A DNA stretch of 21,530 nucleotides. It comes from Trichormus sp. M33_DOE_039 (lineage in GTDB: Bacteria; Cyanobacteriota; Cyanobacteriia; Cyanobacteriales; Nostocaceae). The stretch covers positions 1-21,530 of the forward strand of contig DVDT01000030.1 in the NCBI GenBank assembly GCA_015296085.1. The letters are read 5' to 3'. The notes under the pieces were generated by a model that worked only from the letters and a program-made list of their open reading frames with translations, was not told the origin of the DNA and ran no database searches. The position numbers and the translations under genes were made by a program. This document shows, piece after piece, positions 443 to 5,975 of this stretch. Each line of letters opens with the position of its first letter. The first letter of the stretch is position 1.

Positions 443-865
443 ATGGATCTAATTACCCTGGGTGCGATCGCGCTTGGTTTTTTAGGAAGTAAATTCGCCG
501 ACTGGTCGATAAATAAAGCTTTTGATGTCGCCTATGACAAAGCCATGCAAACTCTAGCGGCTAAATCACCGGAAACAGCAGAGGCTTTCGCACTACCACC
601 CTCAGAACGAGAAGATATTGGTGTTGCTTTGTTGGTAGAACAAGTAGAACAAGCAGCACAGAAAGATCCAGAAATTAAACAAGCGGTGGAAGCATTAGGA
701 AGTCAAGTTACCACGGCTGCACAAGATCATCCTGAATTGGCAAAAGCGATTCAAGAGTTAACCGCAACTCTCAAAGCTCAAAAACCTACCACTGTTGAGA
801 ATTGGCGCGGTATCAATATTAAAGGTGGTGAGAATACCATTAATAACCCTACTCTGAATTTTTAA
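443..865 (+). CDS. Small (140 aa) predicted alpha-helical protein with an N-terminal hydrophobic glycine-zipper helix and a C-terminal N/G-rich motif shared with the downstream NLR; Bell-domain-like candidate membrane-targeting effector carrying a putative amyloid signalling motif
   Basis: ATG at 443 and TAA at 863-865. The N-terminus MDLITLGAIALGFLGSKF is hydrophobic with G-x4-G-x2-G spacing. The middle is rich in A/E/Q/K and looks helical. The C-terminal 22 aa (nt 797-862, ENWRGINIKGGENTINNPTLNF) match residues 4-25 of the next gene at 15 of 22 positions. Only 7 nt separate its stop from the next start, which implies an operon. Confidence 0.75.
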   Translation: MDLITLGAIALGFLGSKFADWSINKAFDVAYDKAMQTLAAKSPETAEAFALPPSEREDIGVALLVEQVEQAAQKDPEIKQAVEALGSQVTTAAQDHPELAKAIQELTATLKAQKPTTVENWRGINIKGGENTINNPTLNF

Positions 866-872
866 ATCAAAG

Positions 873-3236
873 ATGAACTCGGAGAATTGGCAAGGGATAA
901 ACAGCAAAGGTGGCGAAACCGTTATTAATAACCCCATCATTAATTATGGGAATTCCCCACAGGCTACTCCAGCAAATCCCCTGAAAAATATTCCCTACAC
1001 TGGTGTTGTCAACTTTATTGGTAGAGAAAATGAACTTGTTAACATCCACCACAAATTGCAACAGCCAGGGAAAGTTTCAATTTGTGCCGTTGTCGGGATG
1101 GGTGGTGTCGGCAAAACAGAGTTAGCCACTCAATACGCGCGCCAGTTTGAAGCTGATTACTCTGGTGGTGTTTGCTGGATAAATGCCAGGGAATCTGACT
1201 TAGCAGCAAGCATTATTCAGCTTTATCAGTTGTATATTAGTCCGAAAGTCCCAGACAAGATAGGTGAAAAACGGCTTAACCCCCAAGAACAAGTGCAGTG
1301 GTGTTGGCAGAATTGGCAACCATCTCAAGGTTTGGTGTTAGTAGTTTTCGATGATGTGACTAGTTTCGAGAAACTTCTAGAAGTACAGCCGACACTTAAC
1401 CGCTTCCGTGTACTCATCACCACTCGACTGCGAAACCTCAACCCCAAATTTGTGCAGGAAATCTCTCTAGATGAGTTGTCGCCAGCAAACGCCTTGGAAC
1501 TACTCAGGGTTTTTGTAGGAGAAAATCGATTACAACGAGAACGGAAAGCAGCTGAAGAATTGTGTCAATGGCTGGGATATTTACCTTTAGGTTTGGACTT
1601 GGTAGGACAGTATTTAGTTGAAGATCCAGATTTATCTTTAGAAAAGACGCTAATTAAATTAAAAACTCAACGATTAGAAGATCCAGCCCTCAACGCCAAA
1701 CAGCAAGGAGTTAAAGCCGCCTTTGAATTAAGCTGGCAAGAACTTGACCAAACAACACAGCGTATTGGAGCATTGTTAAGTCTATTTGCCCCTGATGTTA
1801 TTCCCTGGCAATTATTAGAGTCTACCTGTGAATTATTAAATTGGACACAGGTAAAGGTAGATGAGGCGAAAAAACAACTCTACAAACGTCATCTCATCCA
1901 ACCGTTAACAGAGAAAACTGGGTGTTACAAAATTCATCCTTTAATTCGGGAGTTCCTACGAGTAAAACTCACACAAATTGCCGACGCAGCAACCGAAAAA
2001 GAATTAGAGATGGAATTAAAAGTAGCTTTTGCAAAGATGATAGTAGCAAAGGCGAAAGAAATTCCTGAAACTCCCACACTTGATGTTATCGCCTCAGTCA
2101 AAGATATTATTACCCAACTCCAAGAAGTTGCTCAATATTTAATTGCTGCTGTGAGTGATCAAGATTTAATTCAGGTTTTTGTTGGGTTAGGCAGATTTTA
2201 TGAAGGACAGGGTTTATATAGGCTAGCAGAACCTTGGCGTGAGCAGTGTTTAACAATAGTTAAATCTCGTTTAGGAACAGAACATCCCCACACCGCCACC
2301 AGCCTTAACGACCTGGCTGGAATCTACTATGCACAAGGAAGATACACAAAAGCCGAACCCTTGTATGTTGAAGCTTTGGCACTGAGAAAACGCCTGCTGG
2401 GAACAGAGCATCCCCACACCGCAGAAAGCCTTAACAACCTGGCTTATCTCTACTATGCACAAGGAAGATACACAGAAGCCGAACCCTTGCTAAAGGAAGC
2501 TTTAGCATTGAGAAAACGCCTGCTGGGAACAGAACACCCCCACACAGCAGAAAGCCTTAACAACCTGGCTGGACTCTACTATGCACAAGGAAGATACACA
2601 GAAGCTGAACCCTTGTATCAACAAGCTTTAGCACTGATAAAACGCCTGCTGGGAACAGAACATCCCCACACCGCCACCAGCCTTAACAACCTGGCTCTAC
2701 TCTACAAAGCACAAAAAAGATACACAGAAGCCGAACCCTTGCTAAAGGAAGCTTTGGCACTAAGAAAACGCCTGCTGGGAACAGAACATCCCCACACCGC
2801 AGCCAGCCTTAACAACCTGGCTTTACTCTACTATGCACAAGGAAGATACACAGAAGCCGAACCCTTATATCAACAAGCTTTGGCACTGATACAACGCCTA
2901 CTAGGAACAGAACATCCCCACACCGCAGCCAGCCTTAACAACCTGACTCATCTCTACTATGCACAAGGAAGATACACAGAAGCCGAACCCTTGCTAAAGG
3001 AAGCTTTGGCACTAAGAAAACGCCTGCTGGGAACAGAACATCCCCATACAGCAGCCAGCCTTAACAACCTGGCTTATCTCTACCATGCACAAGGAAGATA
3101 CACAGAAGCCGAACCCTTGCTAAAGGAAGCTTTGGCAATTTCTGAGCGACAATTAGGTGTCAATCATCCTCATACTATTGCTTGCCGCAAAAATCTTGAT
3201 GACTGCCGTAAAATCGTTCTTGAACTAGGGCATTGA
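873..3236 (+). CDS. NB-ARC / TPR STAND NTPase (bacterial NLR-like protein) with a short N-terminal signalling motif in place of an effector domain
   Basis: 787-aa ORF carrying the canonical NB-ARC motifs: Walker A GMGGVGKT (aa 75-82, nt 1095-1118), Walker B LVLVVFDD (aa 154-161), sensor-1/RNBS-B LITTR (aa 181-185), the GxP motif YLPLGL (aa 236-241) and an MHD-like KIHPLIRE (aa 353-360). The C-terminal half holds 7 full and 1 partial 42-aa TPR units (LGTEHPHTAxSLNNLAxLYYAQGRYTEAEPL...). The N-terminal 26 aa carry the motif shared with ORF 443-865. Confidence 0.95.
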   Translation: MNSENWQGINSKGGETVINNPIINYGNSPQATPANPLKNIPYTGVVNFIGRENELVNIHHKLQQPGKVSICAVVGMGGVGKTELATQYARQFEADYSGGVCWINARESDLAASIIQLYQLYISPKVPDKIGEKRLNPQEQVQWCWQNWQPSQGLVLVVFDDVTSFEKLLEVQPTLNRFRVLITTRLRNLNPKFVQEISLDELSPANALELLRVFVGENRLQRERKAAEELCQWLGYLPLGLDLVGQYLVEDPDLSLEKTLIKLKTQRLEDPALNAKQQGVKAAFELSWQELDQTTQRIGALLSLFAPDVIPWQLLESTCELLNWTQVKVDEAKKQLYKRHLIQPLTEKTGCYKIHPLIREFLRVKLTQIADAATEKELEMELKVAFAKMIVAKAKEIPETPTLDVIASVKDIITQLQEVAQYLIAAVSDQDLIQVFVGLGRFYEGQGLYRLAEPWREQCLTIVKSRLGTEHPHTATSLNDLAGIYYAQGRYTKAEPLYVEALALRKRLLGTEHPHTAESLNNLAYLYYAQGRYTEAEPLLKEALALRKRLLGTEHPHTAESLNNLAGLYYAQGRYTEAEPLYQQALALIKRLLGTEHPHTATSLNNLALLYKAQKRYTEAEPLLKEALALRKRLLGTEHPHTAASLNNLALLYYAQGRYTEAEPLYQQALALIQRLLGTEHPHTAASLNNLTHLYYAQGRYTEAEPLLKEALALRKRLLGTEHPHTAASLNNLAYLYHAQGRYTEAEPLLKEALAISERQLGVNHPHTIACRKNLDDCRKIVLELGH
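2271..3233 (+). repeat. 126-bp (42-aa) tandem TPR-coding repeat array inside the NLR gene
   Basis: Units lie at 2271-2396, 2397-2522, 2523-2648, 2649-2774, 2775-2900, 2901-3026 and 3027-3152, with a degenerate terminal unit at 3153-3233. Long stretches are identical at nucleotide level, for example CTGCTGGGAACAGAACATCCCCACACCGC and GCACAAGGAAGATACACAGAAGCCGAACCCTTG. Confidence 0.93.
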
Positions 3237-4182: not shown

Positions 4183-4237
4183 TGTAGAGACGTTGCATGC
4201 AACGTCTCTACATTATTTGGCCTGCAACGTCTCTACA
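4183..4237. repeat. Perfect 30-bp palindrome TGTAGAGACGTTGCA/TGCAACGTCTCTACA plus a third half-site 10 bp downstream (dispersed GTAGAGAC hairpin family)
   Basis: 4183-4212 is its own reverse complement. 4223-4237 repeats TGCAACGTCTCTACA. The same TGTAGAGAC...GTCTCTA arms recur at 5844-5873 and 5937-5966. Confidence 0.9.
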
Positions 4238-4340: not shown

Positions 4341-5825
4341 TTGTTAATTTTGAATTCGGAGCGCAGCGACGTGACATCCACATTGCCCGAACCGCATCAC
4401 AATGACTCACCCAACTGGGAGGAAGAATTAGATAGTGCCATTTTTAGCTTTGAAGACATTCAAGCGGAACTCAACTATAAACAAGCACAAACGGCACTAC
4501 GTAATTTAGTTGCAAGTCTTGACCTCAGTACCCAAGAAAAAGCGGGTTTAGAGTCGGAAATTGCTGATTTGGAAACTATGCTGGGAAAATTAGACAGTAT
4601 GGTAGTCCAGATTGCGGCTTTTGGCATGGTGGGACGGGGTAAGTCTTCCCTGTTAAATGCTTTGGTAGGACAATCGGTGTTTGAAACTGGCCCTTTGCAT
4701 GGTGTCACCCGTGCGGCTCAAAGCGTCAATTGGAGTATTAGCGAAGAAGTAATTGGCGAAACAGAACGGGCTTTGCGGGTGACTTTACCTGCTGTGGGTA
4801 AATCCCAAGTGGAATTAATTGATACCCCAGGCTTAGACGAAATCGATGGGGAAACGCGCACAGCTTTAGCAGAACAAATAGCAAAACAGGCGGATTTGAT
4901 TCTGTTTGTAATTGCGGGTGATATGACTAAGGTTGAGCAGGTGGCTTTATCGCAATTGCGGGAAGCAGGGAAACCCATCATTTTAGTATTTAACAAAGTA
5001 GACCAATATCCAGAAGCCGATCGCTTGGCAATTTACCAGAAAATCCGCGATGATCGAGTACGAGAATTACTCACACCGCTAGAAATTGTTATGGCGGCGG
5101 CATCTCCACTGGTGAAGACTGCTGTCCGCCGTGCAGATGGGACTAGGGGTGTACAGATGCGTCCGGGTGCGGCACAGGTGGAAGAGTTGAAGCTAAAAAT
5201 TTTAGAGATTTTACAACGCGAAGGGAAAGCTTTAGTCGCACTCAACACCATGCTGTATGCTGACACAGTGAATGAGCAGTTGGTGCAGCGTAAGTTGATG
5301 ATTCGGGAACAGAACGCCAATCAATTAATTTGGAAAGCTGTTATGACCAAAGCTGTGGCGATCGCTCTCAATCCTGTGACAGTAGTAGATATACTGAGTA
5401 GTATAGTTATTGATATAGCTTTAATTTTGGGTTTATCTAAACTCTACGGCATCCCCATGACTGAAGCTGGGGCTGTGCAATTACTGCAAAAAATCGCCAT
5501 CAGTATGGGTGGGATTGGTGTCAGTGAATTATTGGCAAACTTGGGTTTAAGTGGGTTGAAAACTTTACTGGGTATCTCTGCATCAGCCACAGCTGGTTTT
5601 GCCCTTGGCCCTTACATCTCCGTGGCCTTGACGCAAGCCGGGGTAGCTGGTGTTTCTTCCTATGGGATTGGGCAAGTTACCAAAGTGTATTTAGCGAATG
5701 GAGCGACTTGGGGGCCGGATGGGCCGAAAGCTGTGATTAATCGGATTTTGTCCACCCTGGATGAAGCATCAATTTTGAATCGCATCAAAGATGAATTGAT
5801 GCACAAGGTAAAATTCAAAAGGTAA
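4341..5825 (+). CDS. P-loop GTPase (Era/EngA-like G domain) with a C-terminal multi-pass membrane domain (DUF697-like)
   Basis: The G1 motif is GMVGRGKS (aa 95-102, nt 4623-4646), G3 is DTPGLDE and G4 is NKVD. The N-terminus looks coiled-coil. The C-terminal ~170 aa are hydrophobic and rich in G/A (for example AVAIALNPVTVVDILSSIVIDIALILGL). The track start at 4341 is TTG. An in-frame GTG at 4371 is an alternative, and there is no early in-frame ATG. Confidence 0.85.
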   Translation: MLILNSERSDVTSTLPEPHHNDSPNWEEELDSAIFSFEDIQAELNYKQAQTALRNLVASLDLSTQEKAGLESEIADLETMLGKLDSMVVQIAAFGMVGRGKSSLLNALVGQSVFETGPLHGVTRAAQSVNWSISEEVIGETERALRVTLPAVGKSQVELIDTPGLDEIDGETRTALAEQIAKQADLILFVIAGDMTKVEQVALSQLREAGKPIILVFNKVDQYPEADRLAIYQKIRDDRVRELLTPLEIVMAAASPLVKTAVRRADGTRGVQMRPGAAQVEELKLKILEILQREGKALVALNTMLYADTVNEQLVQRKLMIREQNANQLIWKAVMTKAVAIALNPVTVVDILSSIVIDIALILGLSKLYGIPMTEAGAVQLLQKIAISMGGIGVSELLANLGLSGLKTLLGISASATAGFALGPYISVALTQAGVAGVSSYGIGQVTKVYLANGATWGPDGPKAVINRILSTLDEASILNRIKDELMHKVKFKR

Positions 5826-5975
5826 TTGGGAAATCAATAATTTTGTAGAGACGCGATTAATCATGTCTCTATAAGATTCATTGATGAATTGATGCACAAG
5901 GTAAAATTCAAAAGGTAATTGGGAAATCAATAATTTTGTAGAGACGCGATTAATCATGTCTCTATAAGATTCATT
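5790..5975. repeat. 93-bp direct tandem duplication covering the last 12 codons and stop of the GTPase gene plus its downstream hairpin
   Basis: 5790-5882 and 5883-5975 are identical as far as I can read: GATGAATTGATGCACAAGGTAAAATTCAAAAGGTAATTGGGAAATCAATAATTTTGTAGAGACGCGATTAATCATGTCTCTATAAGATTCATT. Each copy contains the TAGAGAC-N12-GTCTCTA hairpin. Confidence 0.92.

Follow-up and report, generated by a model that had tools for sequence, protein, structure and literature searches.

Here we describe a two-gene locus in a stretch of 21,530 nt (hereafter the window) from Trichormus sp. M33_DOE_039, a cyanobacterium of the Nostocaceae (GenBank assembly GCA_015296085.1, contig DVDT01000030.1). A gene for a 140-residue Bell-like protein (443-865) is followed on the same strand, after 7 nt, by a gene for a 787-residue NOD-like receptor (NLR) (873-3236), in keeping with a first reading of the bare sequence, which we call the original prediction. 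Both open reading frames (ORFs) are intact, and the two genes are probably co-transcribed; a gap of 10 bp or less is found in 57% of collinear pairs (Dyrka et al. 2020, bioRxiv 10.1101/2020.01.06.895854). The 140-residue protein is identical to one recorded as a "hypothetical protein" of Trichormus sp. M33_DOE_039. The features of the locus are as follows.

443-865, forward strand: Bell protein gene, an ORF of 140 residues with an ATG start and a TAA stop
443-781, forward strand: Bell helical domain, residues 1-113, predicted by AlphaFold2 (AF2) to be all-helical over residues 3-113, with the N-terminal hydrophobic helix MDLITLGAIALGFLG
797-862, forward strand: Bell-side BASS7 motif ENWRGINIKGGENTINNPTLNF, residues 119-140 (BASS7 profile, 38.3 bits, E 3e-11)
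866-872, forward strand: spacer between the Bell gene and the NLR gene, 7 nt, ATCAAAG
873-3236, forward strand: NB-ARC/TPR NLR-like receptor gene, an ORF of 787 residues with an ATG start and with Pfam domains
882-947, forward strand: NLR-side BASS7 motif ENWQGINSKGGETVINNPIINY, residues 4-25 (BASS7 profile, 21.8 bits, E 4.5e-6)
948-1013, forward strand: NLR linker GNSPQATPANPLKNIPYTGVVN, residues 26-47, homologous to the NPPxNIP linker in a comparison of NLR N-termini
1026-1976, forward strand: NB-ARC module (residues 52-288) and DUF7779 (residues 287-368), from Pfam and a motif search
2265-3233, forward strand: array of tetratricopeptide repeats (TPRs), seven repeats of 42 residues and one partial repeat, from Tandem Repeats Finder (TRF) and repeat alignment

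The two proteins share a short motif. A gapless alignment pairs the last 22 residues of the Bell protein with residues 4-25 of the NLR, with identity at 15 of the 22 positions (68%), as the original prediction had noticed. This is the top local alignment between the two whole proteins, with a BLOSUM62 score of 92; shuffled 40-residue termini score 24.6 ± 5.1 with a maximum of 58, and none of 20,000 shuffles reaches the observed value. The underlying DNA agrees at 46 of 66 nt, and different codons are used for six of the 15 identical residues, which argues that the likeness has been kept on the protein and does not come from a recent copying of DNA. The motif contains six N, three G and three I per 22 residues.

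When we looked for fragments of the motif in the tables that supplement Dyrka et al. 2020, they led to the bass_07 rows of Supplementary Table 2, among them the row for Calothrix sp. 336/3, which reads PTIINENWQGINIKGGTNTINNNTFNF on the Bell side and ENWHGINIKGGKNEIKGNTFIF on the NLR side (bioRxiv 10.1101/2020.01.06.895854). A profile hidden Markov model for BASS7, built from 10 of the published rows, was searched against all 621 six-frame segments of the window. Only two matches were significant, one at the Bell C-terminus and one at the NLR N-terminus; the next segment scored 4.6 bits. The two copies are also placed as BASS7 motifs are, at a Bell C-terminus and at the N-terminus of an NB-ARC protein within 5 kb. 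Judged by sequence, the shared motif belongs to the BASS7 family, and the family that the original prediction had left without a name can be given one.

The call of a Bell-like small protein also held. Pfam, NCBIfam and PADLOC have no Bell model, so membership was judged by homology; on this protein the three collections gave only sub-threshold noise of the coiled-coil type. With the motif excluded, residues 1-115 are 50% identical (E 5e-34) to the helical domain of a 140-residue protein at a related locus, L021. The published pair OYE01691.1/OYE01692.1 is from the same strain as this locus, whose Bell and NLR motifs match both published rows; a cluster-member look-up for the published accessions gave no match, and the link is made through the strain and the exact motifs. 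The N-terminus of the window protein has the expected hallmark, a "MEPIS"-type start in which residue 2 or 3 is acidic (here D at position 2) and a hydrophobic helix follows, with the hydropathy maximum at residues 3-15. An acidic residue 2 followed by a hydrophobic helix is a signature common to Bell, Hell, HeLo, MLKL and Avast2 (bioRxiv 10.1101/2020.01.06.895854; 10.1101/2024.11.07.622273), and the N-termini of the relatives read MEP(L/I)T.GAIA. Homology with an already published member makes the window protein a Bell-domain protein.

A profile of 133 relatives finds a single match in the window, the ORF at 443-865 (135 bits, E 8e-41). The family is sizeable, with 186 clusters at 50% identity in an exhaustive profile search and 824 proteins in a second search, nearly all of them 120-170 residues long and beginning MEP(L/I)T. 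Their C-terminal tails vary and include BASS7, a KLAEKIG..VQGG type (labelled BASS5 in Table S2) and others, a modularity that agrees with the published description of the Bell family. AF2 models made with 13 and with 133 sequences (predicted local distance difference test, pLDDT, 63.4 and 66.7) are all-helical over residues 3-113, with helices predicted at 3-15, 25-41, 43-50, 53-59, 61-74, 76-95 and 97-112. The tail that carries the motif (residues 114-140) has a pLDDT below 50 and is predicted to be disordered in the monomer models.

In the partner protein, Pfam identifies NB-ARC at residues 52-288 (E 4.8e-16), DUF7779 at 287-368 and eight TPR_12/TPR_10 stretches (TPR_12, E 7.8e-140). The P-loop GMGGVGKT (75-82), the Walker B motif VLVVFDD (155-161) and the TTR motif VLITTR (180-185) are intact, as are a GLPL motif, GYLPLG (235-240), and an MHD-like motif, IHPLIR (354). 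NB-ARC motifs followed by superstructure repeats define this protein as an NLR-like STAND NTPase. Ahead of NB-ARC, Pfam recognizes no domain and there is only the BASS7 motif, so the receptor is effector-less, as had been proposed. The original prediction further described a linker of about 25 residues leading to the P-loop: the linker does lead to the start of NB-ARC (FIGRENEL, around residue 48), but the P-loop itself lies some 50 residues after the motif.

The repeats of the receptor are strikingly regular: over 2274-3137, TRF detects a 126-bp period in 6.9 copies with 87% matches, the units being almost identical and varying at repeat positions 12, 18-19, 22 and 34-35. The number of TPR units differs between near-identical strains, with NLRs of 804 and 888 residues at loci L001 and L002, and it differs likewise between L003 and L004, with 513 and 852 residues. 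This variation in number, together with the 87% unit identity, fits a reshuffling of repeats that diversifies the sensor. The NCBIfam model for the FxSxx-COOH system TPR protein (NF040586) scores 322.9 bits on the NLR, above its cut-off of 300, yet the match covers only positions 424-775 of the 830 in the profile, a span confined to the TPR part. The repeats account for the score, so that we do not place the NLR in this family, and an automatic name taken from the model would mislead.

We then considered related loci. A scan of one genome per species, anchored on the Bell protein alone, yielded 28 loci. At 16 of these, the gene directly downstream encodes an NLR and has a start codon and a BASS7 motif of its own, mostly with a 4-nt ATGA overlap, and the loci recovered by exact protein look-up show the same Bell/NLR arrangement. 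Among 13 dereplicated loci, the two motifs of a cognate pair are identical at 14.92 of 22 residues, compared with 12.88 ± 0.43 for permuted partners; one in 100,000 permutations reached the observed value, in a test that ignores phylogeny. Substitutions can be followed on both copies of the same locus: W3S, N7I and K9T at L007 (TDSQGIITTGG and ESSQGIITTGG), I8F together with GG to NA/DS at L018 and L027, and P18N at L021, L026 and L027. Co-evolution or conversion within the locus is needed here, because shared descent alone does not produce likeness between the tail of one gene and the head of another. In these alignments, the Bell-side and NLR-side copies of BASS7 co-vary across Nostocales. 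The original prediction had asked whether orthologues in this order keep the pair: they do, and their motif copies co-vary (13 loci).

The same comparison bears on the idea that the duplicated motif is a functionless leftover, either of a Bell-motif-NLR fusion gene that was split or of a cassette in decay. Some relatives carry Bell-motif and NLR in one frame with a single stop between them, so a split origin is plausible. Against the absence of function stand the integrity of both ORFs, the maintenance of the motif at the protein level through synonymous differences, and its conservation and co-variation in 19 loci from many genera. We find a functionless leftover hardly credible.

What is established directly here is the gene architecture, the family memberships, and the fact that the pair is conserved and its motifs co-vary. 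We consider it likely that the two genes form a Bell/NLR amyloid-signalling cassette of the BASS7 family, its amyloid and killing activities being assigned by analogy with BASS1 and BASS3 in Podospora, with the BASS11 system Bab/Agp in E. coli and with fungal HET-S/NWD2. In such a cassette, the TPR array of the receptor would bind a trigger, probably derived from a phage or another non-self source, and NB-ARC-driven oligomerization would cluster the N-terminal BASS7 segments into a cross-β nucleus. With this nucleus as template, the BASS7 tail at the C-terminus of the Bell protein would take up the same fold. Conversion of the tail would free helix 1, the hydrophobic one at the N-terminus, from the helical bundle, and helix 1 would enter the membrane and kill the cell, in abortive infection or another form of regulated cell death. 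BASS1 and BASS3 are prions in Podospora and form fibrils in vitro, and the NLR-side BASS drives its Bell-side counterpart into the prion state at 43-56% motif identity (bioRxiv 10.1101/2020.01.06.895854).

A more conventional explanation of the motif is that it serves as an ordinary docking peptide, through which the NLR holds and releases the Bell protein by stoichiometric pairing, for instance by β-strand addition, without prion-like templating. Motif similarity and co-variation are equally expected of a heterodimer interface, and BASS7 is an amyloid candidate only. However, the composition, length and terminal position of the motif are those of motifs that were shown to form prions and fibrils and to cross-seed, and the Bell tail is predicted to be disordered and to offer no folded interface. 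We judge docking of this kind unlikely and favor templating by a putative amyloid.

Several observations nonetheless weigh against amyloid signalling and cell death at this locus. The amyloid tests of the 2020 paper concern BASS1 and BASS3 only (bioRxiv 10.1101/2020.01.06.895854), and the predicted Bell structure is of moderate confidence (pLDDT 63-67). A Bell domain is expected to be a compact all-α bundle whose other helices cup helix 1, akin to HeLo, MLKL and CC domains; a Foldseek search of the PDB with both AF2 models gave a best E of 3.7 and no match to HeLo, 4HB, MLKL, CC or Bab; a PDB sequence search with the Bell family profile returned nothing below E 0.3; and no PADLOC model fits the Bell/NLR pair. 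The window cassette sits amid housekeeping and regulatory genes, not in a defence island. Finally, the biological function of Bell/NLR pairs is described as still to be elucidated (bioRxiv 10.1101/2024.11.07.622273). On this last point, the original prediction had stated that few if any such bacterial pairs had been tested, which stands for Bell/NLR pairs and has been overtaken for the related Bab/Agp (BASS11), since shown to act by abortive infection (bioRxiv 10.1101/2024.11.07.622273).

Points of this sort are what one would expect if the small protein were a membrane-associated partner that serves the NLR as adaptor or regulator, with an output other than death, such as signalling or development: Pfam, NCBIfam and PADLOC recognize no enzymatic or pore-forming domain in it, Foldseek finds no fold match to known executioner domains, and the neighbors of the cassette are housekeeping genes. 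Yet the protein combines an acidic residue 2 with a glycine-containing hydrophobic helix, the signature of Bell, Hell, HeLo, MLKL and Avast2, and this region matters where it has been mutated, since N-terminal mutants of Avast2 lose antiphage activity and the helix-1 change G11K in Bab abolishes abortive-infection activity. In addition, an α/β-hydrolase module takes the place of Bell at the junction of locus L065 (see below), as expected for interchangeable effectors. An adaptor role therefore appears to us distinctly improbable, and we retain the Bell protein as the putative membrane-targeting effector of an amyloid-signalling pair.

Comparison with known systems places the locus among the published BASS7 pairs (OYE01691.1/OYE01692.1 and AKG20974.1/AKG24489.1; Nostocaceae and Leptolyngbya). 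These have the same consensus, ENWQGINIKGG.NTI..NT(F/L)NF, at the C-terminus of a Bell protein of about 140 residues and near the start of an NB-ARC/TPR protein, at residues 2-25, and they are likewise encoded by collinear adjacent genes in a filamentous cyanobacterium. The window pair differs by its new host, a Trichormus metagenome-assembled genome, by variants of its own (R4, NNP...) and by a 7-nt spacer instead of the commoner 4-nt overlap. It is another BASS7 Bell/NLR pair, and nothing sets it apart in kind from the published ones.

The resemblance to HET-S/NWD2 of Podospora anserina lies in the adjacency of the genes, in an effector-less NLR with an N-terminal motif and in a small helical partner, here a putative membrane-targeting one, with the C-terminal match. 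The locus has no HeLo or Hell Pfam match (E up to 1), its motif is BASS7 and not HRAM, its receptor is NB-ARC/TPR whereas NWD2 is NACHT/WD, and it has one motif copy where the HET-S effector has two pseudo-repeats. From these sequence features, the locus is an analogue of HET-S/NWD2 and not a member.

Bab/Agp (E. coli ECOR25, BASS11) is reminiscent of the window pair in having a Bell-related helical effector whose C-terminal amyloid motif matches the N-terminus of the adjacent sensor, and it was shown experimentally to provide abortive infection through sensor-triggered amyloid conversion and membrane damage (bioRxiv 10.1101/2024.11.07.622273). The effector domain of Bab, Babybell, is shorter, at about 80 residues, and the motif is BASS11 rather than BASS7. 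Bab/Agp lies in a prophage defence hotspot, whereas the window pair is surrounded by housekeeping genes, and the window partner consists of NB-ARC and TPR only, unlike an Agp-type sensor with TPR, GreA/B-C and PIN. The RHIM-based RIPK1/RIPK3 necrosome and BASS3 also use a short amyloid motif as a switch for regulated cell death; BASS7 lacks their I/VQxG core and the proteins are other ones.

We also report a second arrangement, here called type B, which is found at nine of the 28 Bell-anchored loci and at L008. In type B, the ORF of the Bell protein and its motif ends in TGA and the same frame runs on into the receptor linker and P-loop, with neither a second motif nor a start, as in ...NPTLNF, stop, LQSSSGERTKLNPPNNVPRSGVVKFIGRESEL...GMGGVGKTE. 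In these 10 loci the stop is TGA in every case, and the next base is C in nine. Beyond it, a conserved element extends for about 45 nt past the stop, reading TGA CTACAGTC GCCCG AACGGGAA CGGGT AAAGTTAAATCCCCC. Two examples are:

L035, 5397-5445: type-B element
L089, 2998-3046: type-B element

The element is far better conserved than the coding DNA before it, even between loci with different upstream motifs or downstream partners, and its fourfold-degenerate third positions (TCG/CCG, CGG, GTA/ACA/GCA) are invariant. It is absent from the window with 3 mismatches allowed. A metagenome scan, for which the pattern had the putative stem as N and the loop GGG fixed, recovered 50 stretches, about 48 of them fitting type B. 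In these, a Bell-type ORF of 135-160 residues with diverse amyloid-like tails ends exactly at the TGA, the in-frame ORF beyond usually has several hundred codons (up to 987), and the NB-ARC P-loop lies 47-59 residues past the stop in most. The type-B loci are L005/L024, L006/L020, L008, L019, L028, L029, L031, L033, L035, L037, L038-L087 and L088-L090. The arrangement is also present on three complete plasmids. The one of Nostoc sp. UHCC 0870 has a BASS7 tail, and Nostoc sp. C057 is also among the strains with complete plasmids. In the plasmid annotations, the second gene is called in truncated form, further along the same frame. Partners past the element are mostly NB-ARC/TPR proteins, and also NACHT, CHASE2, transmembrane plus TPR, and GUN4-like proteins. 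At L065, an α/β-hydrolase-like ORF (683-1609, with weak PGAP1/DUF676 matches) replaces Bell ahead of the TGA element at 1610, which suggests that effector modules upstream of the TGA junction are interchangeable.

No in-frame ATG, GTG or TTG is present between the TGA and the conserved FVGR in 32 of 47 NB-ARC type-B loci, and independent initiation of the type-B NLR is disfavoured by this lack of start codons. A putative 5-bp hairpin starts 8 nt past the stop. Over 49 distinct elements, 99.6% of the cells are paired and three of the five pairs have changed on both sides, pair 13-28 being C-G in 29, U-A in 18 and U-G in one; the U-A class may descend from a single event. None of 500 shuffles reaches the observed covariation score, and controls slid along the sequence are 7-45% paired. 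Folding of single sequences of the element was not more stable than that of shuffles (z from -1.1 to +1.7), and Rfam and tRNA scans of five type-B loci gave no match. What speaks for the candidate hairpin is the co-variation together with the invariant fourfold sites. In a conceivable pseudoknot, the loop GGG, fixed by the scan pattern, would pair with the CCCCC downstream, which also encodes a conserved Pro-Pro.

Viral read-through signals, that of murine leukaemia virus (MuLV) for one, share this geometry of a structured element 8 nt past a stop codon. In bacteria, UGA followed by C is a weak terminator (PMC5289835). Programmed read-through at the type-B stop seems to us about as likely as not. 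We tentatively propose, with slightly more doubt than confidence, that the shared motif may be supplied in two interchangeable ways: by a co-evolving second copy on a separate NLR gene, or by read-through of UGA-C, which would give a rare Bell-motif-NLR fusion beside an abundant Bell-motif protein. If read-through does occur, the window pair would represent, in two genes, the "resolved" version of a single-ORF switch based on recoding. One alternative for type B is insertion of selenocysteine at the UGA, since the spacing of the element is also like that of a selenocysteine insertion sequence (SECIS); others are coupled, non-canonical re-initiation and a recombination junction used for the shuffling of modules.

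A prfB-like +1 frameshift at the type-B stop is ruled out, because the +1 frame closes after 9 codons. Among the best 120 matches to a junction query, there was no continuous Bell-BASS7-NLR fusion with a sense codon in place of the UGA. Two cyanobacterial NB-ARC proteins, P0319 and P0336, carry a BASS9-like motif (..FQTKVEGGTAYI.. and ..FQTLVEDGGTANV..) that follows a helical segment and lies 40-120 residues from the N-terminus, all within one continuous ORF; stop-less domain-motif-NLR fusions thus exist for other motif families. The literature searched, including Dyrka et al. 2020, contained no link of read-through to bacterial NLRs or amyloid signalling, and the type-B sister architecture is apparently undescribed.

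The genes that flank the Bell/NLR cassette vary from genome to genome, chromosomal copies included, and many copies, especially of type B, are carried by plasmids or lie on contigs that also bear relaxase, MobC, DnaB, Prim-Pol or ParB genes (L005, L006, L008, L019, L088-L090). The varied neighbors and the contigs with relaxase, MobC, DnaB and Prim-Pol genes indicate that the cassette is mobile.

In the window, the cassette has as neighbors a Coq4-like gene, a DUF697 GTPase gene, a semialdehyde dehydrogenase gene and a gene for a mechanosensitive-channel protein, as well as an AcrB/HlyD/TetR efflux unit and a PAS hybrid kinase. Scanning the window for Rfam families and tRNAs gave no match. Directly 5' of the Bell gene, positions 1-237 are occupied by a 42-bp tandem repeat (5.6 copies, 96% matches) that is open in two frames, one of which gives a 14-residue unit, IKDSFTEQKYSFIY, and leaves the window at its left end. 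A perfect 93-bp direct duplication at 5790-5975 takes in the last codons and 3' flank of the DUF697 GTPase gene (4341-5825). Between the Coq4-like and GTPase genes lies a perfect 30-nt palindrome, TGTAGAGACGTTGCATGCAACGTCTCTACA (4183-4212), scored as a bidirectional terminator-like hairpin, and a related motif, GTAGAGACGCG, recurs within the 93-bp duplication.

Taken together, our findings add to the picture of Bell/NLR pairs as the bacterial counterpart of fungal amyloid-controlled cell death, which bears on the antiquity of NLR-based immunity and of amyloid signalling. The window locus provides a compact and intact BASS7 pair with 68% motif identity that is usable for experiments, as are many equivalent loci, and what is new here is the statistical evidence that the motif copies co-evolve within BASS7, along with the apparently undescribed type-B architecture. 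If the read-through interpretation of type B is true, one motif would serve both proteins via a leaky in-frame stop. Programmed read-through, rare in bacteria, would then act as an inbuilt device that sets the stoichiometry of sensor and effector in a bacterial immune sensor, a new design principle.

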